DNA from: Planctomycetota bacterium
GTDB lineage: Bacteria; Planctomycetota; PLA2; JAEUHO01
NCBI GenBank assembly: GCA_965222115.1
Contig: CBDCTJ010000007.1
Location: 576,001 to 640,000, forward strand
Direction: 5' to 3'
Length of the DNA stretch: 64,000 nucleotides
The position numbers were made by a program, and so were the translations under genes. The notes under the pieces were generated by a model. It did no database searches, was not told where the DNA came from, and saw only the letters and a list, made by a program, of their open reading frames with translations. Each line of letters begins with the position of its first letter. Within the stretch, counting starts at the first letter, position 1. Positions 3-29,648 of the stretch are shown here, piece after piece.

Positions 3-3000
3 GAACAAGGTCCGCGCGGACTGACCTTTGTTCTGACCGATGGTGGACTGGCGTGTATGGGCGCCGTACGCGATGGCGGTCGCGGTAGCCCACTCTTTAT
101 GGCACCCGAGCTAACGGTGGAGGGCGAACACGATCACCGGGTAGACCTCTATTCACTCGGTCTCGTCGCGTTCCGCCTTGCAACGGGCGGAAACCCCATC
201 GATGGTGGCGCCGGCGAAGTCTTGGGCGAACGCCGTCGTCGTTCGGCGCCCTCAGCGCGACAGCGACGTCGTGACATCCCCACCGCATTGGATGCGCTTA
301 TCGCGTCGCTCTTGGATCGTGAACCTAATCAGCGACCGGCCGATGCGCGCGCGTTAGCACGCCGCGTAGCCGACATTCGGGGCCGTAGCGGAAGGACGTT
401 TGAGGCTGTGATTGCCCACCAAACGCGAGAAGGTCCGCTTGTTGGACGCGACGACATTGTCGCGACACTCGAACGTTCGCTGGGTCAACTCGCCTCGGCA
501 CCCACAAAACGACGTGGTGTACGTCTGCAGCATGATGCTGTCATGCTCATGCACGGCATCTCGGGCGTTGGCTGCACACGCGTAGCACGTGAGTGCATCG
601 ATCGCGCGCGGCAACGTGAACTCCCGGTCGTCTTGCTCTCGGGCCGGCACTCGGCCCATGGGCACGACGACCCGCTACGGCATGTCATGCGTCAATTGGA
701 CGCGATCCAGGCGGGGGCAGGCGGAACACCGCGGCCACGTCGGGAACGCAAACGCAATCACGACGCCATGGTGGAACAATTGCTTCGCCAGTGGGAACGC
801 GTCGCACGCGACTGCCCGTTCATTATGGTGGTGACGGATTATGGCGAGCTCGCACCCTCCCTTCAGCGCGCGGTGCATGTAATCGCTCGATTCTTGTTTG
901 CGCGTAGTGAACAGTCGCGCATGCGGCCTGCGATCGCATCCATGCTGTTTGTAGACCTTGGCGACGCCAGTCCCGACCCGCTTCTCAATCCCGATGCCGA
1001 AGATCGAGAGGCACCGGTAACCCGCCTCTCGCCGTTGTCGGCGCGGGACGTTGAACGATTGGTCGCAACACGCTTCCCCGGCTTTTCCTTGGAGGCGCGA
1101 GAGCGGTTACTGCTCCACGAACGCAGCGAGGGTCTCCCGCGCGACGTCGTGGCCCTTGTGGGTGAAGCAGGACGGCGCGGTGACTTTCTTCCGGCGGAAG
1201 GCTCATGGACGTGGCGAGTTCATGAGTTGGAGCGCTACCCCACCGTTCGACCGCTTGATCCGGTCTACCTGCAAGCGTGGGATGCACTTCCACGAGACGC
1301 GCGGACTGTGCTGCGCTCGCTCGCGTTGGCACGGGAGCCCGTGCGTTGCGACGTGCTTGAGGCGGCGTTCGCTCATGAACCGGTTACGGTTGCCCGCCAT
1401 TCACCGCTTGCCAACGTCATCGAACGCGATGGCCATGCATCACTCGCACTCGCTTCACGGGGCGTGCACAACCTCGCAGACACTCATACGAGTGACGGCC
1501 CGGAGACGCTTGCCACAGCTCTACTCGATGCCCATCAGCGTCTTGACGTTTCGCTCAGTCCGCTGGCTCGCGCGCGGCTCCTTGCGCATACCGGTAAACT
1601 CAACGAGGCGCTCATGCACCTCGCCTCCGAAACGCGCGATGCGCGTGAACATCTTCGTGCGAAGAACTTTGACTGGGCCCGCGAACAACTCGAACGCCAT
1701 CCCAATCTTCTGGACCATCCGACGCTGCACGCTTCGTGGGTCAATCTCCTAACGCGTTCTCCAGCCGCAATCGACATTGCCATGCGCCTCAGCACGTGCC
1801 TCGATCCTGCCATCGCGGGCTACGACACGGCGCGCGCCCTCGCGAAAATCATGCATCGCGAAAATCGCTACGACGAAGCATTGGCCTTCCTCAATCAACA
1901 CGAAGCTACCTGGCCGACCGACCCCAAATCACGCACGCAGTTCCACCTTGAACGCGCAAAGATTTTCCTCTCCCTACGCCGTATCGACGACGCCAAAACC
2001 ACACTCCGCGACGCTCGCCACGCCCTCCACCAACTCCCCAATCGTGGACGGGGGGAGGGGGAGTTGATGGGTCGGTATCTCAATATACTTGGTAGCTGTC
2101 ACCAGTTTGGCGGGAACCTAGAGAACGCAAAGAGAGTGTGGTCACTAGGGGAGTCTGTAGCCCGCAGCACGAAGAATCTGGCAGTCCTTGCAAGTACGTT
2201 GAACAACATCGGTATTGCCCTTCATAGAAGTGGGAACCGGACCGAATCAGCGGATTACCTTCGACGTTCACTACGATTGTATCGTGGTCTGTACAAGATG
2301 GATCGCGTCGCGCTCGCAGAGTACAATCTAGGCACCATTGAAGTATCAAACGGAAAATTGGCGTCAGGAATTAGGCGCCTAAAGACCTCCGCAAGTATTT
2401 CCATGCGCTACGGGCAACTTCAACGGCTATCGAGCGCACTAGTTTCCCTCGCACATGCGTACGATCAGGAATCGAATCCTTCGCTCGCAAATACGACCCT
2501 TCGCCGCGCACTGCGAGAAGCAATTTCTAGCAAGGCTCACTATCGAATCTCTAGTGTATCTCAGAGACTCGCGCCGTTGTCCGCAGCGTTGGGAGACGCA
2601 CAAGGTTCCAGATCGGCGCTCCAGTGTAGTGCGCGTGCTTCGCGAGCTTCCGAAGACTGCCGATTTGGACACTTCCTTGCATCCGCCCTTTCGAATCTCT
2701 ACCTGGGTAAGCGAGCCGACGCAAGAGTGTCGCTCATGCGTGCGGCGAGACGCGCGCCTAAGCGCCAACTTCGCGAGGCACAAGTAGTCCTGATTCTTAT
2801 AAAACTCCTAGACGCCACCAACTGCCGTTACACAAATACTGTCGACACGACCTCAATCTCTGAGCACCTCACGTGGTGCATAGATTCAGCTACGTGGGAT
2901 ACCAAATATGCTCCACTTGATAAACTTAGTCCTGCATCCACACCTGAAAGCGGTACGCTCCGCAGGCTAAAGGCCGAAGTCGTATTGTGGTCTGCAATCA

Positions 3001-5006
3001 ACCGCTCTCCAGTTGGCGATGTCGTCCAAAAAGACTTAGGTCACATGACGGCTCGCCTTAGGCGCTCAGGGGAAAAGGCAATTCTGGCGCGTGCTCTTTC
3101 ACTTCAATCAATGCTGCAAATCGACGGGATACAGAGTGGAAATGGTGCGCACCTCCTGTCTGATGCACTTCAAGAGTGGCAAAGCAATGCTCAGTCACAC
3201 TCGATTCCTCTCGAATTCGTACTGACGTACAATTGCCATGCGAAGCGACTCGGCTTGGCGCAAACTCACGCGTTAAAACGAGACTTAACTAGAACTGACC
3301 TGGAAGCTCTTGGCTATAGATTCCTCCGTGAGCACTCAAGTAGCAGCCCCGATGACAGCAGGATCTCTCGCGCACTTAAGCGCGTGGTGCAAGCGACTGC
3401 AGATCTCCGCGCCGATCATGACCTGTACCGATTGCTTAGAACCATGACGGAAGCGGTACTTGAAGTTACTGGGGCAGAAAGAGCATGCGTGGTGCGCGTC
3501 ACTGAAGATGGCGGCCAAGAGATTTGTGTCGCGTCAAACTCGATTGGAGACACGGTCCCGCCCCCTTCGGTTGTAAACCTATCTCAAACTGTAATCGACA
3601 GAGTGATGAGATCTCGCTCGCCATTGCTTCTACACGATGTGTTCGATGACGATGAGTTGATGATGCGACCGAGTATTACAAAGCTATCTCTTCGCACACT
3701 GCTTTGTGTGCCAATGGTCCGAAGTGGCCATCTGTATGGTGTTCTCTACGCGGACAGCACATCTACAGCTGCTAGTTTCGACAGCACTGACTTGGAAGTG
3801 TTTACTCTTTTCGCTGATCATGCCGCGGGCGCGCTTGAGTCTCAAAGATTGGTATCAAACCTGAAATTCTCTATGGAAGAGCTTCAGCGCGCTCAGGAGC
3901 AGTTGATACGAGGGGAGAGGCTACGAACGATAGGGGAGATTAGTAGCGGCGTCGCACACGAGTTCAACAATCTGTTAACATCAATTCTTGCTAGAGTCCA
4001 ACTACTTAGTATGACACCTATGGGTGAAGGGGTGGCCAGAGATCTCGAGTTAATCGAGAAGGCATGCATGGATGCGGCGGAAGTAGTGCGAAGGCTTCAG
4101 AGCTTCAGTAGGCGCGAGTGCGAGGCAGGTTTCGTCGAAACTGATCTCTGCCAGATCTGCCGCGATGCCGTGGAGTTCATGAAGCCCCTGTGGACTCATC
4201 GAAATCAGAGTGACGCTAACGCATTGATCGTATCAATCAATGCTCCGACATCACTCATGGTCAACGGATCGCCGACTGAGTTGCGGGAGGTGATTACGAA
4301 TCTCATCAAAAACTCACTAGATGCAACGGGCTATAGTGGATCAATCAAAATTCACGCCATTGAAGTTGGGGCTGAGGCTGTAATAGTAGTTTCAGATAAC
4401 GGACCAGGGGTTCCTGAGAAGTATCGAGACAAGATTTTCGATTCCTTCTTTTCAACGAAAGGAGAAAAAGGAACAGGGCTTGGTCTATGTCTATGTAAAC
4501 AGATCGTTGAGAGGCATGGAGGTAGCATTGAGCTTGCCTGCCCAGAAGTCGGTGGTACAGAAATTACAATAAAGCTTCCGATGCGAGCAGAGGCTCGTCC
4601 GACCAATACGTCTAGCATGCCGGAGAGTCCAGCCAAGGGTGTGCGGGTACTAGTTGTTGATGATGACGAAAACGTCCGTACACCGCTAGCCAAGTTCCTC
4701 TCTAAAGAAGGCTTCGAAGTTTCATCGGCATCGGGGGGCGTTGAGGGGTTAGAGATGATCCCTCGGTCTAATCCACATGTAGTGATTAGCGACCTTAGTA
4801 TGCCAGAGATGGATGGCATCGAATTCTGTCGTCATCTAGCGGCCAGACATCCTCTGACGCCTATTGTCCTCATGACGGGTCGAAGCAATCTCATTAATGC
4901 AGACAGACTGCGATCAACGGGCGCGTCTGCATTGATTGCCAAACCATTCTCTATGCGAAGCGTAACGAGACTGATTCATGATGTGCTGGCAGAGACACAG
5001 CGCTAG
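3..5006 (+). CDS. 5'-truncated multidomain hybrid sensor: Ser/Thr kinase-like C-lobe, degenerate AAA/STAND-like NTPase, TPR repeats, GAF, HisKA/HATPase_c, receiver
   Basis: Frame is open from base 3 (EQGPRGLTFVLTDGGLACM...), so the gene starts upstream of the window. Kinase motifs GSPLFMAPE and DLYSLG; LVGRD followed by GISGVGCT; TPR-like LNNIGIAL and YNLG; GAF LLCVPM...GVLYAD; H-box AHEFNNLL; N/G boxes DNGPGV and GTGLGL; receiver VLVVDDD...SDLSMPEMDG...KP. Confidence 0.9.
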   Translation, partial: EQGPRGLTFVLTDGGLACMGAVRDGGRGSPLFMAPELTVEGEHDHRVDLYSLGLVAFRLATGGNPIDGGAGEVLGERRRRSAPSARQRRRDIPTALDALIASLLDREPNQRPADARALARRVADIRGRSGRTFEAVIAHQTREGPLVGRDDIVATLERSLGQLASAPTKRRGVRLQHDAVMLMHGISGVGCTRVARECIDRARQRELPVVLLSGRHSAHGHDDPLRHVMRQLDAIQAGAGGTPRPRRERKRNHDAMVEQLLRQWERVARDCPFIMVVTDYGELAPSLQRAVHVIARFLFARSEQSRMRPAIASMLFVDLGDASPDPLLNPDAEDREAPVTRLSPLSARDVERLVATRFPGFSLEARERLLLHERSEGLPRDVVALVGEAGRRGDFLPAEGSWTWRVHELERYPTVRPLDPVYLQAWDALPRDARTVLRSLALAREPVRCDVLEAAFAHEPVTVARHSPLANVIERDGHASLALASRGVHNLADTHTSDGPETLATALLDAHQRLDVSLSPLARARLLAHTGKLNEALMHLASETRDAREHLRAKNFDWAREQLERHPNLLDHPTLHASWVNLLTRSPAAIDIAMRLSTCLDPAIAGYDTARALAKIMHRENRYDEALAFLNQHEATWPTDPKSRTQFHLERAKIFLSLRRIDDAKTTLRDARHALHQLPNRGRGEGELMGRYLNILGSCHQFGGNLENAKRVWSLGESVARSTKNLAVLASTLNNIGIALHRSGNRTESADYLRRSLRLYRGLYKMDRVALAEYNLGTIEVSNGKLASGIRRLKTSASISMRYGQLQRLSSALVSLAHAYDQESNPSLANTTLRRALREAISSKAHYRISSVSQRLAPLSAALGDAQGSRSALQCSARASRASEDCRFGHFLASALSNLYLGKRADARVSLMRAARRAPKRQLREAQVVLILIKLLDATNCRYTNTVDTTSISEHLTWCIDSATWDTKYAPLDKLSPASTPESGTLRRLKAEVVLWSAINRSPVGDVVQKDLGHMTARLRRSGEKAILARALSLQSMLQIDGIQSGNGAHLLSDALQEWQSNAQSHSIPLEFVLTYNCHAKRLGLAQTHALKRDLTRTDLEALGYRFLREHSSSSPDDSRISRALKRVVQATADLRADHDLYRLLRTMTEAVLEVTGAERACVVRVTEDGGQEICVASNSIGDTVPPPSVVNLSQTVIDRVMRSRSPLLLHDVFDDDELMMRPSITKLSLRTLLCVPMVRSGHLYGVLYADSTSTAASFDSTDLEVFTLFADHAAGALESQRLVSNLKFSMEELQRAQEQLIRGERLRTIGEISSGVAHEFNNLLTSILARVQLLSMTPMGEGVARDLELIEKACMDAAEVVRRLQSFSRRECEAGFVETDLCQICRDAVEFMKPLWTHRNQSDANALIVSINAPTSLMVNGSPTELREVITNLIKNSLDATGYSGSIKIHAIEVGAEAVIVVSDNGPGVPEKYRDKIFDSFFSTKGEKGTGLGLCLCKQIVERHGGSIELACPEVGGTEITIKLPMRAEARPTNTSSMPESPAKGVRVLVVDDDENVRTPLAKFLSKEGFEVSSASGGVEGLEMIPRSNPHVVISDLSMPEMDGIEFCRHLAARHPLTPIVLMTGRSNLINADRLRSTGASALIAKPFSMRSVTRLIHDVLAETQR

Positions 5007-5053
5007 ATTCCCAAACTAACCATAAGACAGCGGTACTACTTCTCTGCCGTGTA

Positions 5054-5395
5054 TTAGTCGACGAAGTCCGGCTCAAGTTCGGGTTCCAAGAAGGAAAAAC
5101 AAATCGCTCCCTCGCCCAGGAGAACGTCTGCAACGTAACCGCCGTTGGGCAGTGGAATCAAGACTGAGTGCTCCCAGTCATCAGTCACTCCGCCCCCAAC
5201 GGTCAGCCCGATCGAATCGAACACGACGAAGGGCGTTCCCGGCTCACATGCCAAGAACAGTTCAGCCTCGAAACAACTCAAGTCGTAACTCACGGACACG
5301 TGGTCAGTGAAAGTTGTATTCGCACTTGAAGTAGAGGTGAATGAGAGCAACGCAAGAAAGATGGCGGCGACCAAGACATTTAGTTTGCGGGGCAT
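5054..5395 (-). CDS. Small secreted protein of unknown function (113 aa, signal peptide, acidic mature part with 3 Cys)
   Basis: MPRKLNVLVAAIFLALLSFTSTSSA is a Sec-type signal peptide; GGAG lies 7 nt upstream of the ATG at 5395 (the track ORF starts at 5452). Confidence 0.7.
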   Translation of the reverse strand: MPRKLNVLVAAIFLALLSFTSTSSANTTFTDHVSVSYDLSCFEAELFLACEPGTPFVVFDSIGLTVGGGVTDDWEHSVLIPLPNGGYVADVLLGEGAICFSFLEPELEPDFVD

Positions 5396-5567
5396 TTGTA
5401 AGCTCCAAGGCTGCTGAACTGCGTCTACCAAATTAGACATTTGATTCGACAATTCAACGCTCGTCCAAATGGATACACAAACACAATACTAACCTGCGCC
5501 CAAGATTGCAATTTTCAGGCTAAAGCTGCGAACATCTTCCAATGATTCCGCGCACGGCAGCCTTGCG

Positions 5568-8500
5568 ATGACGAGCAGGGCGTTCAGGAAACCAATGCTG
5601 GTACTAGCTGCAGCTCCGGGCTGTAGCAGGAACCGGTGCCTTAAGGGCAGGGGAAGTGTCAGGGTTGGTCAGAGATCGTGGATTCGAATGAATGGCAACG
5701 AACTCGTTGAGCGAGGGCCTGCACTCATACGCTCAATCGTCCACCGCATTTCATGCGTGGCTTGCCAATCACCATTGCCTCGCGTTGTCGTTGTTCGGTT
5801 TGATCCTGGCAGCCCATTACACATGTTGCTGACTGGCTGCCTAATGTCGATCACAGACCCGACTCCGAAATCGATAGACGTCGTTAGGGAAACGATATCT
5901 AGAGAGCCTACCCAACATGCTCGTGAACCTGGAACTACCGCTAGATGGATGTATGAAAATTGCTTGCGCGGTGAGTATTGGGAGAGGCTTCTTAATATCA
6001 TAGAAAGAAGAAGCACAAGGGCTACAGCGCGATTAGTACTTAGTCGTGCGGTTAGGACCCCTACGAGAGATACGGCTCACATAGAGGAGGCGATTTTTCG
6101 CTCCGTCACGATCTTACTTGGAGCAGGAGAAACGAGTACTCGCGCCGCCCAGTACATGGCCTCACTTGCCCGATGCTCGCGGCTCATCAGAAAGCCAAAT
6201 CTCCGCGAGTACGCCTGGCTCCTGCGTAATCTCCCTAAGGACATCATTCCAGTCGCACGCAACTTGGCAAGCAGGGCTTTAAGCAACTACCAAATACGCC
6301 ACAATACTCCCGGCCACCCGAAAGCACTTCCGTCCGTAAAGAGAATGTGTGTGCGGCGACAAGCATTCACAAGATCGAGTAATGTCGGGGGTGTGTATGC
6401 CACGATCTTGAGAGGTTTCTATTGCGTTTCTCAAGATCCCCAAGTCATTTATTCAAAGATTGACTACCAAACTGGAGCAGCACTTCGAGGCTCGCCATAC
6501 GAGATGCTGATCCGCTCCTGCGTAGCTCGAATAGTTTACTCCATATTTGCACGCGGCTTGGCTAGTACACATCATTTACGACTCGCCGCGGCTCTAGTTG
6601 CACATCACTATCAAGAGACTCATATTCACCCAAATCTCGCGCAAGACCTGCTGGCCCCAAACATTTCGAAACGTGCTGCCTTCGGCCCCGTACACAGAAA
6701 GGCAAAGGTGCTCGCCGTCGCGCTCGACTCAAATAGAATGTCACGGCTGAAGCGAGAATCAAACGGCCGCGAAACACTAGAAGTCTCGCACCTATACTCA
6801 ATGGGAATCACCGGGAGTGCTTCAGGTCCCATCACCGTGTTGAACACCCCTACTGCACTCTTGCGCACACTGAGCGGGCTGTGGAATACGCGCTCGCGAG
6901 GGATCACGCCGCAGCGACTTGAGAAGTATCGCCGGCTTCCAGAGCACGCGGCAACCTACTCGACTTTGATACTGTTACAGGCGAATGCGCGAGCGGCAAC
7001 CGCAGCACACGCAATGCACTCGCTGCTTAAGATGGAAACGACGTGGGCGACGCGGTTGTACATGTGCTTGATTCTGAGCCGGTACTACATCCGTATGGGG
7101 CGGGCGCGGGAGGCGGTGCGGACGTTGGCGCAGTGCGTGCAGGCGTATCGGGGGTTGGAGAAGTTTCGGCGAAGCGTGGATGTGGCAACGAAGCCGGAAC
7201 CGATTGAAGCCTTTGAACGCTATTGCAATCAAGCGCTGTCGATGATGAATCCGCCGCGAGCGCCGGGCCGAGATGCTGTGATTGCGGTGGCGCGCGTGGC
7301 GCGGGCCATGCCTCCGTATCGGCGTCCGCGACGACCCATGCGCACGTTGCGCGCGATTGAGTCGCTACTCGCCGCCGGCGATCACTTGGACGATAAGGAG
7401 CGATCTTTACGGGTGGCCGACGAGTTGGCCGCCGTGGCCGATGCCTACGTGCTCTATCACGAACGTCACGGCAAGGTGCTGCGCGAAGTGCCGCAGGTCG
7501 AACACACCTTGGCAACCACCACGCTGCGGGGCCTCAGCAAACTTCCCCATATGTCGGTGCGCTCCATTCGTCCGCGCGCCGAGTTTTGGCGACCACACCA
7601 ACGCCGCCCGCGCGCCGTACTCATCGTGCGCATGGAAAACGAATTCCTTGCACTGGCCAAACGCGTACGCTTTCGAACCAACGAAACCCGCGCGGTCGCC
7701 GCGATGGCTCGAATGGTTCAGTCGCAGGGCCGTTCGCAGGGAGTGGGTAGCGCGACGCCGCGCAGCACGCACACGCGGCGCGAATCCACAAACGCGTTTG
7801 GTATGATCGGCGAGGCCACAGCATGGCAAAATGTAATGCGCTTGGTAGGTCGGTTGGCGACCACCGACACATCGGTCGTTATTCAAGGAGAAACGGGCAC
7901 GGGGAAAGAACTGGTGGCGCGTGCGTTGCACCTCGGTTCCGGTCGCGCACAGGGTCCCTTTGTGGCCGTGGATTGTGGCGCGCTCGCCGGCGATATGATG
8001 CGCGCAGAACTCTTTGGACACGTACGCGGCGCGTTTACCGGCGCCCATACGTCCCGCAAGGGGCTGATTCGCTCCGCGCACCGCGGCACCCTGTTTCTCG
8101 ACGAAATCGGCAATATGCCGCCCGATATGCAACAGACGCTACTGCGCGTGCTGCAGGAGCGCAGTGTTCGCCCCGTGGGTGGCGCCAAACGATTCGATGT
8201 GGACATTCGTTTGGTATGCGCGACACACGTCGAGCTATACAACGCAGTTGAGGCGGGTGTGTTTCGCGAAGACCTGTATCACCGCATCTGCGTTGTCGAG
8301 ATCGACGTGCCGCCGCTCCGCGCACGCAAGGAGGACATCCCGCGCTTTGTCGAGCATTTCTTAGCGGGCGTCGGTTGTGCGCCTCACGTACCCAGTACAT
8401 GCCTGTCATTGCTCTGTGGTTACGAGTGGCCCGGTAACGTTCGTGAACTAAAGAACGTGGTGTGCGCGGCAGGTATGCTCAGCCCCGGCAAGGAACTCGA

Positions 8501-8771
8501 TTACGAAACACTCAAATCGGTGATGGCCACGCGATTGGATCGAGATGTTTCCATCCGCGCGGTACGTGCCGATTTAACGCGGCGCGAACGAGACTTGATT
8601 GCGTTGCTGAAACGACGGTGGATGTCGTCCGCCGAGCTCGCTCAGCGACTGGGGGTCTCCCCGCGCACCATGAATCGCGACCTACAACACCTCGCGGAAC
8701 GCGGTTGGATCGAGCACATCGGCAATACACACATGCGGCGTTACCGAGCCACCAGGCGCACGACGGAGTAG
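5568..8771 (+). CDS. Sigma54-dependent transcriptional activator (bEBP) with a long divergent N-terminus and a C-terminal winged HTH; start uncertain
   Basis: Walker A GETGTGKE, ELFGHVRGAFTGA, Walker B LFLDEIG, FREDLYHR, WPGNVREL; C-terminal SSAELAQRLGVSPRTMNRDL (DeoR/HTH_11-like). Confidence 0.88.
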   Translation: MTSRAFRKPMLVLAAAPGCSRNRCLKGRGSVRVGQRSWIRMNGNELVERGPALIRSIVHRISCVACQSPLPRVVVVRFDPGSPLHMLLTGCLMSITDPTPKSIDVVRETISREPTQHAREPGTTARWMYENCLRGEYWERLLNIIERRSTRATARLVLSRAVRTPTRDTAHIEEAIFRSVTILLGAGETSTRAAQYMASLARCSRLIRKPNLREYAWLLRNLPKDIIPVARNLASRALSNYQIRHNTPGHPKALPSVKRMCVRRQAFTRSSNVGGVYATILRGFYCVSQDPQVIYSKIDYQTGAALRGSPYEMLIRSCVARIVYSIFARGLASTHHLRLAAALVAHHYQETHIHPNLAQDLLAPNISKRAAFGPVHRKAKVLAVALDSNRMSRLKRESNGRETLEVSHLYSMGITGSASGPITVLNTPTALLRTLSGLWNTRSRGITPQRLEKYRRLPEHAATYSTLILLQANARAATAAHAMHSLLKMETTWATRLYMCLILSRYYIRMGRAREAVRTLAQCVQAYRGLEKFRRSVDVATKPEPIEAFERYCNQALSMMNPPRAPGRDAVIAVARVARAMPPYRRPRRPMRTLRAIESLLAAGDHLDDKERSLRVADELAAVADAYVLYHERHGKVLREVPQVEHTLATTTLRGLSKLPHMSVRSIRPRAEFWRPHQRRPRAVLIVRMENEFLALAKRVRFRTNETRAVAAMARMVQSQGRSQGVGSATPRSTHTRRESTNAFGMIGEATAWQNVMRLVGRLATTDTSVVIQGETGTGKELVARALHLGSGRAQGPFVAVDCGALAGDMMRAELFGHVRGAFTGAHTSRKGLIRSAHRGTLFLDEIGNMPPDMQQTLLRVLQERSVRPVGGAKRFDVDIRLVCATHVELYNAVEAGVFREDLYHRICVVEIDVPPLRARKEDIPRFVEHFLAGVGCAPHVPSTCLSLLCGYEWPGNVRELKNVVCAAGMLSPGKELDYETLKSVMATRLDRDVSIRAVRADLTRRERDLIALLKRRWMSSAELAQRLGVSPRTMNRDLQHLAERGWIEHIGNTHMRRYRATRRTTE

Positions 8772-9159: not shown

Positions 9160-10239
9160 CTACGAACCCTTTCCCTCCGGCAGGTCGGGGGGTGGGAGGA
9201 AACGATCCTGGGCGTGGCGCGCCGCCTCTTGCTCCGCCTCTTCCCATACAAGCTCCTCGTAGGCGCGCCTCCGTCGAACACGAAGTACGAAAAACCAAAT
9301 GGCCGAGAGGATCGCGAGCAACAGAAAGATCGTTTGCGTCAGGTCCTTGAAGAACAAATGAAACCAAGGGCGCGCCGTCTCTTTGGCATGCTGCTGCCAA
9401 CGCGATTCCCAATCACCCAATCGTTGGCCCGTAACACGGTGAATGGCGCGATCCAACCGTTCGGTGGCCCCGCCTGCGTCGCTATCACGGGACACATGGC
9501 GCAGCACATCGGCAACCTTGTGCCAACCCATGTCGGACGCCATGTATTCAACAAAACTCTTGCCCTGGGCATAAGCGAGCGCCGCGCTGGGTTCATCGCG
9601 TGGCCACGTCAATGCAATCTCCTCGAAGGGAATCAGATTGCTGGCCGCCGCACTGAGTTCCAAACGTGCGCCGCCATCCGCGGACAAGCCTCCGCCGATG
9701 GACTCACACAGCCCCTCTTCAAACCACCGGGGTAGTGCGCCGGATGCGCGCGGCCCCAGCACCCGCGCGGCCATACGATGCCAGGCTAAATGCACCCATT
9801 CATGGCGCAGTAGCGTGTGCAGTGTGCGAAACGGTGCCCCGTCATGGGCACGATCGCTGCGAATTACGACAAGCGAACGCGAGCCCACACAAACGCCACC
9901 CGCCCAAGCCGGAACCCCGGCTCCCACCACGGCTTGCATGCGGTCATGGCTGCCCACGACGTATACATGGGCCGGCCCACCCGCGAACGGCGACATCAGA
10001 CGTCGCTCCACATCGCGCTGGATCGTCGCGAGTGCTGCGACCACACGACGCCCGTCGGCTTTGCAATCGGCGTCGATGTAAACAAAATGGCCCTGGTCGG
10101 TGATGACGGGGCGACTGTGCGCACTGCCGCTCGTCGTCCCTAAGAATACACCCAAGAACACGCCCATCGCTATGACACGGGCGGCCCAACGAAGGCACTC
10201 GTTCGCTATTTGGCGAATGGAACCGTTACCACCGGGCAC
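9160..10239 (-). CDS. Peptidase MA-like zinc metallohydrolase, exported and C-terminally membrane-anchored; true start probably a little downstream
   Basis: LRHEWVH (HExxH) and PRWFEEGLCE (gluzincin third ligand); hydrophobic N- and C-terminal segments. Confidence 0.8.
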   Translation of the reverse strand: MPGGNGSIRQIANECLRWAARVIAMGVFLGVFLGTTSGSAHSRPVITDQGHFVYIDADCKADGRRVVAALATIQRDVERRLMSPFAGGPAHVYVVGSHDRMQAVVGAGVPAWAGGVCVGSRSLVVIRSDRAHDGAPFRTLHTLLRHEWVHLAWHRMAARVLGPRASGALPRWFEEGLCESIGGGLSADGGARLELSAAASNLIPFEEIALTWPRDEPSAALAYAQGKSFVEYMASDMGWHKVADVLRHVSRDSDAGGATERLDRAIHRVTGQRLGDWESRWQQHAKETARPWFHLFFKDLTQTIFLLLAILSAIWFFVLRVRRRRAYEELVWEEAEQEAARHAQDRFLPPPDLPEGKGS

Positions 10240-22407: not shown

Positions 22408-24039
22408 TCATGCCAGCAAGTCTTCGAGACGAGCGAGATCGCTTGCAAACTCGGGGTTCTTATTTCGTTCGCGGTCCACCGTGCGAACGGCGTACAACAC
22501 CGTGCTGTGGTCGCGTCCACCAAAGTGGTCACCAATCTCTTCAAGCGAGAGTCGCGTCAACTTGCGTGCTAAGAACATAATGATCTGTCGCGGGCGTGAA
22601 ATTGAGCGACCGCGACGCTTTGAGCGCAAATCCGATACGCGGACATGGTATTGCTCGCAAATCAACGACGTAATGTCGTCCAACGTGACGCCTTGTCGTG
22701 CATTTCGAAGGGATGTCGAAAGCGCTTTCTTTGCAAGCTCCATCGTGATGCTGCACTGAAGAATGTCGGCGTGGGCGCGAATGGACTGAAGCGCGCCTTC
22801 CAGTTCGCGAATGTTGTTTCGAAAATTGGCCGCAATGAGCTCCTCGACATCAGGAGGCACGTCAATGCCGTATAGCGACGCCTTCCGCCGAACAATGGCC
22901 ATGCGGGTCTCGGTTTCGGGACGCTCCAATTTGGTGACCAAGCCCCATTGAAAACGCGACATGAGCCGATCCTCGAGATCGGGAATCTCGCGTGGGGCCG
23001 CATCGCTGGAGAGCACGATTTGGCGCTTGAGTTTGTAGAGGTGATTAAACGTGTGGAAGAACTCTTCTTGTGTGCGCTCCTTGCCCTGCAAAAAGTGGAT
23101 ATCGTCAATAACCAAGAGGTGTACGTTGCGGAATCGATCGCGGAACCGTTCGTGATCGTTGCGCTGCACACTTCGTACAAACTCATTGGTCAGCTCTTCG
23201 CACGACATCATGCATATGCGTTCTCCTGGCCGACGCACAACAAACTCGTTGCAAATGGCATGCAGTAGGTGTGTCTTTCCCAGACCTACGGAACTGTGAA
23301 GAAAAAGCGGATTGTACGCTCGGCCCGGATTGTCGGCGACTGCCTTGGCGCTTGCGTACGCCATGTTGTTTGACGGGCCCACCACGAAGTTTTCAAACGA
23401 GTAGCGCTTGTCCAGGGACGCGGTGCCGGCTTCGTAGGGGCTGTCGCTAAACGGGCGCGGAACGTAGCTATCATCGCGGGCTTGCCTCGCCGTGAGGCCA
23501 CTTTCGCCGGGCAGCGAAATGGTGCGCCGCGCGGTGACGCCACCGGCATCTTCGACCGACAAGCTGCCCTTCTCCTGAGCAACGCCCTCGCCTGCGGCCC
23601 TATTATTTTGGGCCGCGGAATCGTGGCTTTCTGGGGTTTGGGGCTCCGAGGGACTCGCCTCCGAGACGGCATTCGAGTCCGCTGACGCTGCGTGGTCCCC
23701 CGAGGGCGTGCTTGAACTCGCTTCCGCCGTGTCATTCGTCACGATTTGGGCATCCGGTACGATTTGGAAGGTGACCCGCACGGCGCCGCCGGTGAGTTGG
23801 GCGGCCTGTTCCGCAATCAAGGTCTGATAGTGCGCCATGTGCCATTCGTAGTAGAAGCGATTGGGTACGCCAATCACCAAGTGTCCCTGAATCCACGTCA
23901 CCACATGCAGTCGGCGAATCCACACGTCGTATTTGGCGGGCGGCACAAGTGAGCGCAAGGTGTCTTTGAGCATGGGGAACAAATGGTCTTGCTGCATGGC
24001 CGTTGATGATCGGCCCGATTCAGACGAGTAGTTGGTCAC
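22408..24039 (-). CDS. dnaA: Chromosomal replication initiator DnaA
   Basis: FENFVVGPSN, YNPLFL, GLGKTHL, IDDIHFL, QEEFFHTFN, NIRELEGAL, FGGRDHSTV; start GTG at 24039 (GGGGAGGG upstream) or ATG at 23997. Confidence 0.97.
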   Translation of the reverse strand: MTNYSSESGRSSTAMQQDHLFPMLKDTLRSLVPPAKYDVWIRRLHVVTWIQGHLVIGVPNRFYYEWHMAHYQTLIAEQAAQLTGGAVRVTFQIVPDAQIVTNDTAEASSSTPSGDHAASADSNAVSEASPSEPQTPESHDSAAQNNRAAGEGVAQEKGSLSVEDAGGVTARRTISLPGESGLTARQARDDSYVPRPFSDSPYEAGTASLDKRYSFENFVVGPSNNMAYASAKAVADNPGRAYNPLFLHSSVGLGKTHLLHAICNEFVVRRPGERICMMSCEELTNEFVRSVQRNDHERFRDRFRNVHLLVIDDIHFLQGKERTQEEFFHTFNHLYKLKRQIVLSSDAAPREIPDLEDRLMSRFQWGLVTKLERPETETRMAIVRRKASLYGIDVPPDVEELIAANFRNNIRELEGALQSIRAHADILQCSITMELAKKALSTSLRNARQGVTLDDITSLICEQYHVRVSDLRSKRRGRSISRPRQIIMFLARKLTRLSLEEIGDHFGGRDHSTVLYAVRTVDRERNKNPEFASDLARLEDLLA

Positions 24040-27996: not shown

Positions 27997-29648
27997 ATCA
28001 GCCCGCCATACGACGACACGTATTGGCACCTCATGTGGGACCTGCGCCGGGGACCTTTGTTGACGCCTGGTGGAATCGTCATCCGGTGGCCACACGCTGG
28101 CTTACGCCGAGTCCACAAACACCCGAAGCGTGGCGCACCGTGACGAGCAACGCGGTTTCGCGTCCCCTACCTGCCGCACTCGCGGACCAATTGTCTGAGC
28201 GGCAGCGTGCGATGGACACGGGGCCGATCGCCATCAGAAACGCCAGACGACTTGCTGAGCCGCGCACTCGCGTTGTTGTTACGGGTCAACAGCCTAGCCC
28301 GTACGGCGGTGCGCTGCTCGTACTTCATAAAGCGGCGACGGCCGTTTCGCTGGCGAAACACCTCGCGTCCGTACAACCGGATCTTGTCTTCGTACCCTGC
28401 TTTTGGCTCGCCGATGACGATCACGATGTGGACGAGGCGGCGAGTGTAACGGTGCGCAACACGCACGGACAATCCCAACGCGTGCGCATACCGTTCCCGC
28501 GCGATCGCCGCAGCCTTCGGCATCAACCGTTTACGGCCGATCTCGCCGGCACGGTGCATGAAAACGTGCACCAGCTCTTGCCGGCGACGGTGCGTTCACA
28601 TGACGTTCTCACGGCGCTGGCGCCGCGATCCGATGAACCGTATGCCGCGTGGGTAGGGCGTTGCCTTGCAACCTACATGGGCGATAGCGGCCTCGTGGTG
28701 CTTGAGCCCGAGCTACTCGAACCCGAGATCGCTACGCACTATTCGTGGCTACGCGAGTCGTCGCCCGTCATTACAAATGCGATTCGCGATGCGGGTAACG
28801 TGTTTGACCAAGCGGGACTTCCGCAGCCCCTTTCGCCCTCGCAGGCCACGATGCCCTTTTTCATTCGAGACGTCGAGCGCGGTCCTCGGGTACGTCCTCC
28901 ATCTGAGGATGCGTTGCCTACGGCACAAGCGGTTGGGCGTGAACCCTGGCGCTTGAGCGTGGACGTGGTCAGTCGCGTTTTGATGCAAAACAAGACACTG
29001 CCTGTTGTCGCGCATGTTGTGGGGCCCACCGAAATGGCCTATGTGGCGCAAATCGCGGCGGCCGCCGAAGCAACAAACCAGACGCAGCCGCTGGTGTGGC
29101 CACGTATTCATGCGTCTTGGATGGATGCAAAGACCAACGCGCGCATGGAGCAAAGCAACCTGTCGTGGGATTCGTTGTTTCACCCGCCCACCCCACGCGC
29201 GGAGACAGCTCCGGGGTATCAAGCATCCGCTCGTCTAGCAAAGGACGGCGAACCAAAGGACAATGGTGAAGCGGCATCGCGATTGGCATCACAATTAGCG
29301 ACACATCTAGATGAATATTGGCACCGCTTCTTGCTTGAGGTGGATCAAGCGCTGAACGCAAGTCAGCACGCAAAACCTCGGTCCTTGTGGCAAACCCAAC
29401 GCGACGTACTCCACAAGCGTTGGCTCCGAATTCGTAAGATGCTTGAACGCGCGGCGCAGCAAAGTGAGCAATCCGGTGCACGCACCCGCACGCGCGTCAT
29501 GGAGGTCTTGCGCCCGAGAGGTCGCCCGCAAGAACGTGTGGTTTGTCCTTTGTCCCTAGCAGCTCGCCATGGTCTCGAGGTCATTGAAGCGGGGTTGCAG
29601 GCGCTTGACCCCTTGGAACGAAACCACCAAGTGCTGGGCTTCGATTAG
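27993..29648 (+). CDS. bshC: Bacillithiol biosynthesis cysteine-adding enzyme
   Basis: VVTGQQ, HKA, FWLADDDHDVDE, GPTEMAY, WPR, PQERV. Confidence 0.88.
   Translation: MNQPAIRRHVLAPHVGPAPGTFVDAWWNRHPVATRWLTPSPQTPEAWRTVTSNAVSRPLPAALADQLSERQRAMDTGPIAIRNARRLAEPRTRVVVTGQQPSPYGGALLVLHKAATAVSLAKHLASVQPDLVFVPCFWLADDDHDVDEAASVTVRNTHGQSQRVRIPFPRDRRSLRHQPFTADLAGTVHENVHQLLPATVRSHDVLTALAPRSDEPYAAWVGRCLATYMGDSGLVVLEPELLEPEIATHYSWLRESSPVITNAIRDAGNVFDQAGLPQPLSPSQATMPFFIRDVERGPRVRPPSEDALPTAQAVGREPWRLSVDVVSRVLMQNKTLPVVAHVVGPTEMAYVAQIAAAAEATNQTQPLVWPRIHASWMDAKTNARMEQSNLSWDSLFHPPTPRAETAPGYQASARLAKDGEPKDNGEAASRLASQLATHLDEYWHRFLLEVDQALNASQHAKPRSLWQTQRDVLHKRWLRIRKMLERAAQQSEQSGARTRTRVMEVLRPRGRPQERVVCPLSLAARHGLEVIEAGLQALDPLERNHQVLGFD

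Follow-up and report, generated by a model that had tools for sequence, protein, structure and literature searches.

A conserved low-GC trough across a kinase and sigma-54 activator locus in an uncultured family of Planctomycetota

In a 64,000-nt stretch of a Planctomycetota genome (hereafter the window: positions 576,001 to 640,000 of contig C7 in genome G000, assembly GCA_965222115.1), a three-gene regulatory locus is crossed by a zone of low GC content. The locus consists of a giant gene fusing a Ser/Thr kinase to a hybrid histidine kinase, a gene for a small secreted protein on the opposite strand, and a gene for a sigma-54 activator. The zone is about 4.8 kb long and covers the TPR-GAF-HisKA-HATPase-REC half of the kinase, the small protein and the first ~450 codons of the activator. 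It is an old, vertically inherited trough bound to this locus, and we favour, at about even confidence, the reading that the force favouring G and C is persistently weaker in it, likeliest through a recombination cold spot. The original prediction, made from the letters of the sequence, had proposed either a specificity cassette exchanged between conserved arms or localized strand-asymmetric mutagenesis, and had suggested a diversifying ligand-receptor-activator system, such as one for kin recognition.

Composition and edges of the zone

The G000 assembly comprises 4.55 Mb in 7 contigs with 58.7% GC. GC content was 0.61-0.65 on either side of the zone and 0.44-0.57 between ~2100 and ~6900 (window positions throughout, unless a contig is named). 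A three-segment least-squares fit placed the edges at 2051 and 6801, with 0.62, 0.52 and 0.62 GC in the successive segments. The zone had been predicted at about 2050-6900, and the hand counts given for it were all exact (39/60 GC at 241-300; 25/60 each at 2881-2940 and 4381-4440). No other 1-kb bin of the window fell under 0.555 GC. Genome-wide, with contig C6 (39.7% GC) excluded from the GC rankings, the 5-kb interval at C7:577501 had the fourth lowest GC, and the two edges ranked 3 (+0.108) and 8 (-0.091) among 44,841 GC change-point positions.

Codon usage changed along with GC. The in-frame GC content of third codon positions (GC3) dropped from ~0.60-0.72 outside to 0.32-0.55 inside, and that of first positions was lower too. 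AGA was found in 0/679 and 0/622 codons outside and in 18/988 and 12/445 inside, and ATA 0 and 1 times outside and 8 and 8 times inside; AGG was also nearly missing outside and common inside. AGR (AGA or AGG), ATA, CTA and TTA codons were 5-9 times commoner inside the zone, in agreement with the predicted shift towards rare codons. Codon usage in the trough is relaxed, with GC3 reduced by 10-28 points. With 32 rare codons, the first 300 codons of the activator ranked second among 2968 open reading frames (ORFs; our own greedy set for G000). The dinucleotide delta* of the zone, 111, lay at the 99.0th percentile of 946 windows, and together with a GC of 0.52 against 0.59 this is the atypical composition expected of a genomic island.

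Both edges lie mid-gene with the reading frames uninterrupted, as had been noticed at the outset. A hairpin considered at the left edge (2027-2039/2058-2070; -25.7 kcal/mol) was discarded: 110 of 200 shuffled sequences were equally stable (z = 0.23).

Counting the zone, the genome has 26 low-GC domains that reach 2.5 kb or more. Other large ones (C7:907001-914250, C7:1381501-1387750, C7:361501-365750 and others) span whole genes, among them those for a Rhs-like 1583-aa protein, for sulfate activation and polysaccharides and for an IS110-like transposase (judged from N-termini, with no family search), and look like accessory islands. A single 16S primer pattern, used as an rRNA test for these domains, had 0 matches in the genome, which does not imply the absence of rRNA. 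The excluded contig C6 (48,116 nt; 39.7% GC vs 58.7% elsewhere) has the most deviant dinucleotide signature (delta* 190.8); mis-binning, a plasmid or a phage is the probable explanation.

Conservation of the locus and the trough in relatives

Of 29 genomes from an uncultured family of Planctomycetota, 24 carry a single full-length kinase ortholog (E<=1e-30), G000 likewise giving one match, and a whole-genome search of the sister family found no kinase of this architecture. Seventeen loci of relatives were retrieved (numbered L0xx). The codon alignments hold 14 kinases and 13 activators, G000 among them, and thus 13 and 12 relatives; L019 (from G008) was omitted for its fragmented frames, as were the kinases of L018 and L025, and L027 was used in pairwise comparison only. 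The kinase-activator order was kept in 7 of the 9 first loci. The conserved order and orientation runs from an XdhC-like gene through a gene for a ~420-aa secreted protein of unknown function to the kinase, the small protein (antisense) and the activator.

A GC3 dip was present at aligned positions in all 15 relatives' loci examined. Measured against each genome's own flanks, the N-terminus of the activator was lower by 11 to 28 points in 12/12 relatives (G000, -13) and the TPR region of the kinase by 3 to 22 points in 13/13 (G000, -10). The GAF-histidine kinase-receiver (GAF-HK-REC) block in between was lower by 10 to 27 points in 8/13 relatives and higher by 3 to 8 in the other 5/13 (G000, -16). 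The general form is therefore two troughs over helical-repeat regions, merged across the conserved output block in most lineages. Three-segment fits gave a zone of 4.3-6.25 kb in 10/11 loci. The trough persists across 8 other genera, with an in-zone GC3 of 64-74% and flanks of 81-97%.

The relatives also share the codon shift. AGR codons made up 2.0-3.1% of Arg codons outside the zone and 14.1%, 6.0% and 18.4% inside, and ATA rose from 0-0.6% to 3.2-5.8%. The rare codons are not shared by position: in a permutation within amino-acid classes, with one genome per genus, 20, 23 and 28 pairs were observed against means of 16.0, 18.9 and 31.1 (P = 0.18, 0.20 and 0.73). Moreover, the trough is not a function of protein conservation, because the poorly conserved kinase columns 701-800 keep a GC3 of 92-100 in L014, L016 and L023 whereas the well-conserved HK block is low in 8/13 relatives.

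The locus belongs to the core region and lies near the likely origin of replication. The dnaA gene is found at 22,933-23,415 of the window on the minus strand (PF00308, 220.5 bits), 15-16 kb past the activator in G000, G013, G008 and G009. The cumulative G-C curve of C7 has its minimum at C7:612,539 (window 36,539), the likely origin, and its maximum at C7:2,775,735, the likely terminus. Both large genes point toward the minimum and are therefore head-on to the fork; gene order relative to dnaA is identical in G013, G008 and G009.

Upstream of the kinase, two conserved neighbours were seen at C7:573080-574612 and C7:571390-572319 (L053:5080-6612 and 3390-4319): the XdhC-like gene (PF13478, PF02625) and a gene for a protein of 412-510 aa that matches no known family. 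In relatives, this second protein begins with a signal-like N-terminus; in G000 it shows only a sub-threshold TPR_19.

Searches for further relatives added nothing closer. Single-protein scans of metagenome contigs and genome contigs found no close relatives, and a profile search of metagenome contigs returned generic Ser/Thr kinases only, at 26-34% identity over the kinase domain (L054-L133, unused).

Divergence and phylogeny of the zone

The expectation that orthologous loci would be alike outside the zone and collapse inside it held in two within-genus pairs. Nucleotide identity was 75-93% outside and 56-84% inside for G015/G033, and 83-93% outside and 63-81% inside for G006/G035. Synonymous divergence (dS) was calculated by Nei-Gojobori counting with Jukes-Cantor correction in our own script, with the GC3 contrast between compartments uncorrected. 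In G015/G033, dS was 0.35-1.5 in the kinase N-terminus, 0.58-1.6 in the activator C-terminus and ~1-3 or saturated inside, including HK windows that were 89-98% identical in amino acids; in G006/G035 it was 0.13-0.60 outside and 0.96 to >3 inside. The difference at fourfold-degenerate sites was higher inside in 6/6 pairs. Among fourfold sites holding G or C in both genomes, G↔C differences rose from 0.271±0.023 outside to 0.425±0.037 inside.

The proteins also changed faster: branches of the TPR region and the activator N-terminus exceeded flank branches in length ~4-7 times. The ratio of nonsynonymous to synonymous divergence (dN/dS), taken by window, was <1 wherever estimable in both pairs, the exception being a value of 0.94 for columns 1-60 of the activator alignment (G015/G033). 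The zone is fast-evolving without shown positive selection, and much of the dS excess would be expected from relaxed constraint on G/C-ending codons. An indel also falls within the zone: of the two genus-mates G015 and G033, the former has ~500 nt more between kinase and small gene (L017:11177-12175 vs L024:6466-6957).

Maximum-likelihood trees of the kinase N-terminus, the TPR region and the GAF-HK-REC block had the same starred clades, (L017,L024)+L026, (L016,L023)+L015, (L013,L021) and (L020,L022). The activator trees recovered (L017,L024), (L016,L023), (L020,L022) and (L018,L025), the last being starred in the C-terminal tree only. These partitions of the alignments show the zone to evolve along the same tree as its flanks.

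Nor did any mark of mobility come to light. No tRNA was found at the zone, no ORF beside the three genes resembled an integrase or an insertion sequence (IS), in line with the original prediction, and no meaningful direct or inverted repeat bordered the zone (none >28 nt in 1-10 kb, and no tandem repeat). The first 10 kb also held no reverse transcriptase ORF, template repeat, simple-sequence tract or invertible segment. Besides lacking mobility genes, a tRNA and border repeats, the zone shows neither the patchy presence nor the discordant tree of a genomic island.

Both edges were bridged by Logan contigs. One 17,204-nt contig spans 999-9500 with 0 differences, and contigs of a second sample bridge 1967-2230 and 6806-7383, again with 0 differences, which speaks against a chimeric join. 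The matches are contigs of 4 runs from one study, 0 of them RNA and possibly including the source sample, and show no variants; as contigs they give no reading of depth or polymorphism, and the uncovered stretches of X3 and X4 are uninformative. An apparent depth peak at 7609-8559 arises from AAA+ domains of other organisms at the 85% threshold. The zone is neither recently imported nor chimeric, and it is not a cassette passed between genera.

Skewed flanks

The C-rich left and G-rich right flanks (Table 1) had been described as mirror images, with 55 C and 17 G at 1921-2040 and 55 G and 24 C at 7081-7200, and these counts were exact. Among 75,020 windows, the corresponding 120-nt skews of -0.53 and +0.39 belong to the outermost 0.013% and 0.15%, respectively. 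At third positions the two sides differ in degree. The right flank is extreme, with a skew of +0.54 to +0.57 (70 G against 19 C in 120 codons) at the 99.97-99.98th percentile of 25,953 windows, and its gene ranks 4th of 2968 ORFs; the left flank, at -0.34 to -0.40 (1.3-2.9th percentile), is a mild outlier. The G-rich strand faces outward at both flanks, so that transcripts coming in from either side are rich in C and poor in G.

The skews are real, and their conservation is limited. A G-rich right flank (third-position skew >=+40) was present at aligned columns in L014, L016, L017 and L024, that is, in 4/12 relatives. A C-rich window (<=-40) on the left was present in 7/13, and 50-codon windows equally low occur elsewhere in these genes. 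The negative-left, positive-right polarity was seen in 0 of the other 25 low-GC domains of the genome.

Several features that might underlie the flanks were examined and set aside. A comparison of the C-rich with the G-rich flank for inverted repeats or an invertible segment yielded only arms of 16-28 nt at 71-88%, a chance level. Runs of G or C, as in G-quadruplexes, were no richer than the overall skew. A 162-aa minus-strand ORF under the right flank (7027-7515) is a low-complexity Ala/Pro/Arg/Thr/Ser shadow frame that the G in third positions of the sense strand holds open. Polar motifs of Chi or KOPS type, GGTGGGGG and the GTGGACG family, were not concentrated in the flanks. On C7 as a whole, the 8-mer GGTGGGGG is strand-polar (217 leading vs 3 lagging), as are GTGGGGG (464 vs 46) and the GTGGACG family; this polarity is reminiscent of KOPS or Chi, and the sequences may orient the chromosome in a similar way in this lineage. 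Rho might load at such C-rich RNA, and R-loops might form at the G-rich flanks.

Possible causes of the trough

Bacterial mutation is AT-biased, and a high GC3 requires a counter-force, which published work attributes to recombination and/or selection (PMC4450053, PMC11879095). In the explanation that we favour, the force keeping third positions rich in G and C, whether recombination-linked biased gene conversion and/or codon-usage selection, would be persistently weaker in the zone. The divergent helical-repeat segments flanking the short HK-REC block would hinder homologous pairing and so give rise to a recombination cold spot, where AT-biased mutation would lower the composition and synonymous sites would turn over freely. 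The HK-REC block would seldom lie within a conversion tract, fitting its variable GC3 state among lineages. Besides the conserved position, the faster change and the congruent trees of the trough, two observations suit this picture: GC3 is below that of neighbouring DNA of the same ancestry, as in a cold spot, and the rare codons are scattered by position, which points to a regional, neutral-like process. According to PMC4450053, gene GC rises with recombination in most bacteria. PMC11879095 reports a positive correlation of GC with r/m (recombination relative to mutation) in 82% of species, recombination landscapes conserved across orthologs, and the existence of coldspots.

Several points weigh against this explanation. 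The G↔C excess of the zone is unexpected from a weaker GC force alone and points to a higher mutation rate or a deeper coalescence; it could also be inflated by paths through A/T states and by a G-versus-C codon preference in the flanks. Relaxed synonymous force alone likewise does not predict the ratio of HK-REC to N-terminal branches, ~1.2-3.7 in low-GC3 lineages against 0.57-0.96. In-zone GC3 is nearly uniform at 64-74% although the flanks vary between 81 and 97%, which makes the offset variable. With dnaA 15 kb away, a cold spot would run contrary to the trend given in PMC11879095, where recombination is highest near the origin in most species. The delta* of the zone is atypical, as is that of the putative imported islands, the dS values carry the uncorrected GC3 contrast, and the model does not account for the skewed flanks, which are real, least of all for the G-rich one.

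The strongest alternative, which we regard as possible but rather unlikely, is a locally raised, AT-biased mutation rate between the skewed flanks, by which composition would drift toward A/T and both synonymous and protein divergence would go up. It would leave the same signature as a weaker counter-force, and the two may also act together. Candidate processes are origin-proximal head-on conflict of replication and transcription, converging transcripts of kinase and small gene, and R-loops at the G-rich flanks. The zone of faster change postulated by the original prediction is real, with synonymous divergence several-fold higher inside in two independent within-genus pairs, and its mutational cause is the part left at this lower probability. 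Raised mutation accounts at least equally well for the G↔C excess (0.271 vs 0.425, and 0.32-0.39 vs 0.45-0.52), the longer HK-REC protein branches in low-GC3 lineages, the near-constant in-zone GC3 and the proximity of the origin; both large genes are head-on to the fork, with the same order to dnaA in G013, G008 and G009, and the flanks are strand-asymmetric with the G-rich strand outward on both sides. However, the sequence reveals no mechanism (repeats, a retroelement and a template copy are all missing), head-on orientation concerns whole genes rather than a sub-genic stretch, and relaxed constraint on G/C-ending codons can largely yield the dS excess. Two separate troughs also fit better where the HK-REC block has normal or high GC3 (5/13 relatives), and the flank skews recur in only 4/12 (right) and 7/13 (left) relatives. 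A stronger form of this idea, a mutation hot zone that has maintained itself since the family ancestor, is bounded by outward G-rich flanks and is focused on the input domains of the two cytoplasmic master regulators and on the small secreted protein, strikes us as improbable. If true, it would be a built-in, locus-specific generator of variation working without retroelement, repeats or invertase.

Selection for an AT-rich or rare-codon domain is improbable too. Such a domain might act as a translation throttle on the activator and the kinase output half, as a platform from which a nucleoid protein silences the divergent promoters of small gene and activator or, with the C-rich flanks, as a site of Rho loading that halts incoming transcripts. 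It would suit the persistence of trough and rare codons across 8 other genera (in-zone GC3 64-74%, flanks 81-97%), the second richest rare-codon cluster of 2968 ORFs in the activator N-terminus, and the C-rich, G-poor RNA entering from both sides; conserved rare-codon clusters have, moreover, been described (PMC5438181). Yet orthologs do not share the positions of their rare codons (P = 0.18-0.73), translational tuning of single genes would not be expected to give mid-gene edges or to take in intergenic DNA, and the faster protein evolution and saturated dS inside the zone speak for less constraint. Promoters, terminators and RNA families also include no standout.

Exchange of an allelic cassette, or long-lived allele classes within species swapped via conserved arms, was the first of the two origins proposed at the outset, and we consider it slightly less probable still. 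The identity that is high outside and collapses inside in two within-genus pairs, the ~500-nt indel between L017 and L024, and the concentration of the fastest change in sensor-input regions and in a secreted protein are all what such exchange would leave. As far as the trees resolve, five partitions nevertheless give the same starred clades, also within genera g5, g7 and g16, and the dip occurs in all 15 loci. The module is present once, without silent copies (one match in G000), the edges are without repeats, in-zone divergence scales with flank divergence across pairs, and exchange alone leaves the low GC3 and the rare codons unexplained.

A recent horizontal import or a chimeric assembly join, which the low GC and atypical dinucleotides (99.0th percentile) shared with the other low-GC islands of the genome would suggest, is highly improbable and already contradicted by the matching position of the trough in each of the 15 relatives' loci, the congruent trees, the lack of mobility genes, tRNA and border repeats, and the frames and Logan contigs running through both edges (0 differences).

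Features of the encoded module

Table 1. Coordinates of the zone, its flanks and the encoded features (window positions unless stated)
Feature	Position	Strand	Basis and remarks
Low-GC, rare-codon-rich, fast-diverging zone	2051..6801	.	Three-segment fit; background GC fully regained at ~6950
C-rich left flank, GC still high	1350..2040	+	300-nt GC skew -0.14 to -0.25
G-rich right flank, activator codons 441-600	6888..7367	+	G at 70/120 third positions
Ser/Thr-kinase / NTPase-like / TPR / GAF / HisKA / HATPase_c / receiver protein, 1851 aa	1..5006 (full gene C7:575451-581006)	+	ORF, Pfam
First recognisable TPR unit, just within left edge	2079..2285	+	Pfam TPR_12, residues 675-743 of P0001
GAF (3417-3839), HisKA (3936-4118), HATPase_c (4269-4586) and receiver (4647-4970), intact in zone	3417..4970	+	Pfam above cut-offs
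Small secreted protein, 113 aa	5054..5395	-	ORF; convergent with kinase gene, divergent from activator gene
Sigma-54 activator, 1067 aa	5568..8771	+	Pfam, PDB profile matches, AlphaFold2
Predicted activator parts: alpha/beta unit (residues ~10-111), all-helical repeats (124-623), alpha/beta GAF-like unit (627-722)			AlphaFold2
Activator AAA+ sigma-54 domain (residues 746-912), lid, winged-helix HTH (1002-1063)	7803..8303 (AAA+); 8571..8756 (HTH)	+	Pfam

The kinase gene starts 549 nt upstream of the window. In the full-length protein, Pfam assigned Pkinase to residues 57-301, TPR_12 to 877-945, GAF to 1323-1463, HisKA to 1496-1556, HATPase_c to 1607-1712 and Response_reg to 1733-1840. The protein qualifies as a hybrid histidine kinase (PF00512, 27.6 bits against a cut-off of 26.9; PF02518, 91.4; PF00072, 89.8), and the HisKA, HATPase_c and receiver motifs are intact, as had been stated; the translation contains the H-box 'AHEFNN'. 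In the family, the GAF-HK-REC block has a mean pairwise identity of 53-71% over most of its length.

The Ser/Thr kinase domain matched PF00069 with 70.1 bits, and the catalytic Lys, Asp and Asn and the APE motif are kept, with K87, D176, N181, D197 and A218-P219-E220 invariant in the 14 kinase sequences. Hanks-type kinases usually carry the motifs HRD and DFG. Here, the loops read HYD for HRD and DGG for DFG, invariantly across the 14 orthologs (residues ~174-200), and from these residues the domain may be either an unusual active kinase or a pseudokinase.

The small protein is real and conserved, with one correction to the prediction: it lies on the minus strand. Its N-terminus is signal-peptide-like, with a Kyte-Doolittle maximum of 1.91 at residue 7, and the AlphaFold2 model has six strands (pLDDT 69.1); by this model it would consist of a signal-like N-terminus and a small beta domain. 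A homolog at the same site and in the same orientation was found in 12/12 relatives with a readable kinase-activator gap. Twelve database proteins matched at E<=0.001 (one being the protein itself), and all named ones are 'hypothetical protein' of Planctomycetota. Nothing below E = 0.19 was found among PDB sequences, and Foldseek gave no match at E<=0.001, the top one being an Ig-like SiiE domain (E = 0.03, TMq 0.36).

The activator is, judging from its domain, its GAFTGA loop and the presence of rpoN in the genome, a true sigma-54 activator. PF00158 scored 213.9 bits (cut-off 20.2) and matched in 13/13 orthologs. The loop reads 'HVRGAFTGA', with G821, G825 and A826 invariant and A822 and F823 almost so, and rpoN was found at C7:1924571-1925047 (PF04552, 207.9 bits). 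Profile matches in PDB, the best being ZraR (1ojl, 1.2e-108), the Nif-specific regulatory protein (9qq6) and FleQ, span ~720-1035 only, and known families match only the last ~320 residues. No Pfam receiver domain was found in the activator, no Pfam family matched before residue ~740 in the first member, and no input-domain family was among the 25 most widely matched families across 13 members. The top Protein Atlas score for residues 1-625 was 0.76 (a TPR cluster), under the 0.9 line and thus a lead only. The AlphaFold2 model (pLDDT 72.8, pTM 0.43) suggests the parts listed in Table 1, 'GAF-like' for residues 627-722 being proposed from the secondary-structure pattern without a fold search.

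A direct binding of the small protein to either large protein finds little favour. The kinase and the activator have no segment over Kyte-Doolittle 1.6 and both look cytoplasmic, and the predicted topology, exported versus cytoplasmic, argues against binding. Along with the lack of a Pfam receiver in the activator and a dN/dS <1 (0.94 in its first 60 columns), this leaves the suggested ligand-receptor or kin-recognition system unsupported.

Regulatory signals of the locus were scarce. The sigma-54 consensus TGGCAC-N4-6-TTGC was absent from 5000-5600, and the target of the activator may be elsewhere; the divergent intergenic region of 13 loci had no GG/GC site with >=8/11 matches. The only two -24/-12 consensus matches of the window are at 9512-9525 (minus), within the long minus-strand ORF 9160-10239, and at 29319-29334 (plus), a chance-level number (19 of 100 shuffles gave >=2). 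No sigma-70-like promoter was found in 4800-5900 and no RNA family at E<=1 in 1-10 kb, and two terminator-like sites on the minus strand at 5105-5126 were at chance level.

Comparison with known systems

Low-GC stretches in high-GC genomes are routinely taken as imported DNA. The zone looks imported by composition tests yet is old, vertical and fixed, which calls for caution in composition-based island calling. Like a horizontally acquired low-GC island, it has low GC, rare codons and atypical dinucleotides; unlike one, it lacks mobility genes, tRNA and border repeats, has its edges in intact genes, occupies the same site in relatives and shares the tree of its flanks. Literature searches listed no paper on the module or on a conserved sub-genic GC trough, and no described counterpart was found for a module that joins a giant kinase fusion, a small secreted protein and an activator with a ~620-residue input and a winged-helix HTH.

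Among systems that generate variation, diversity-generating retroelements and contingency loci likewise concentrate it in sensor- or ligand-type domains within sharp limits. The zone differs in having no reverse transcriptase or template repeat and in diverging over 4.8 kb rather than in a short variable region. Should its faster change turn out to be mutational, the zone would represent a novel type of site-specific variation among bacteria. Rare codons offer another parallel. The bldA/TTA system of Streptomyces is a case of rare-codon control of regulators, and the activator, like members of conserved rare-codon clusters, is a regulator rich in the rarest codons of its genome whose enrichment is kept in orthologs. 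In contrast to such clusters, the codons of the zone are not conserved by position, cross gene borders and are accompanied by faster evolution throughout.

The activator resembles GAF-containing sigma-54 activators such as NifA in its AAA+ domain, its GAFTGA loop, an input without a Pfam receiver and the presence of rpoN in the genome. It departs from them in ~620 extra N-terminal residues of no known family, predicted to form a helical-repeat solenoid, and from usual sigma-54 activators in having a winged-helix HTH (MarR/ArsR-like) instead of Fis and no -24/-12 promoter nearby.

The nearest likeness to the trough itself is recombination-linked GC heterogeneity through biased gene conversion, which also gives a local drop of GC3 without a change of ancestry (PMC4450053 and PMC11879095). 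That heterogeneity has been published gene by gene, whereas the zone is sub-genic, taking in two half-genes and one whole gene, holds its position over 9 genera, has skewed edges and lies near the origin. With both GC regimes side by side in the same genes of many genera, it provides a natural case for separating the forces that set GC content.

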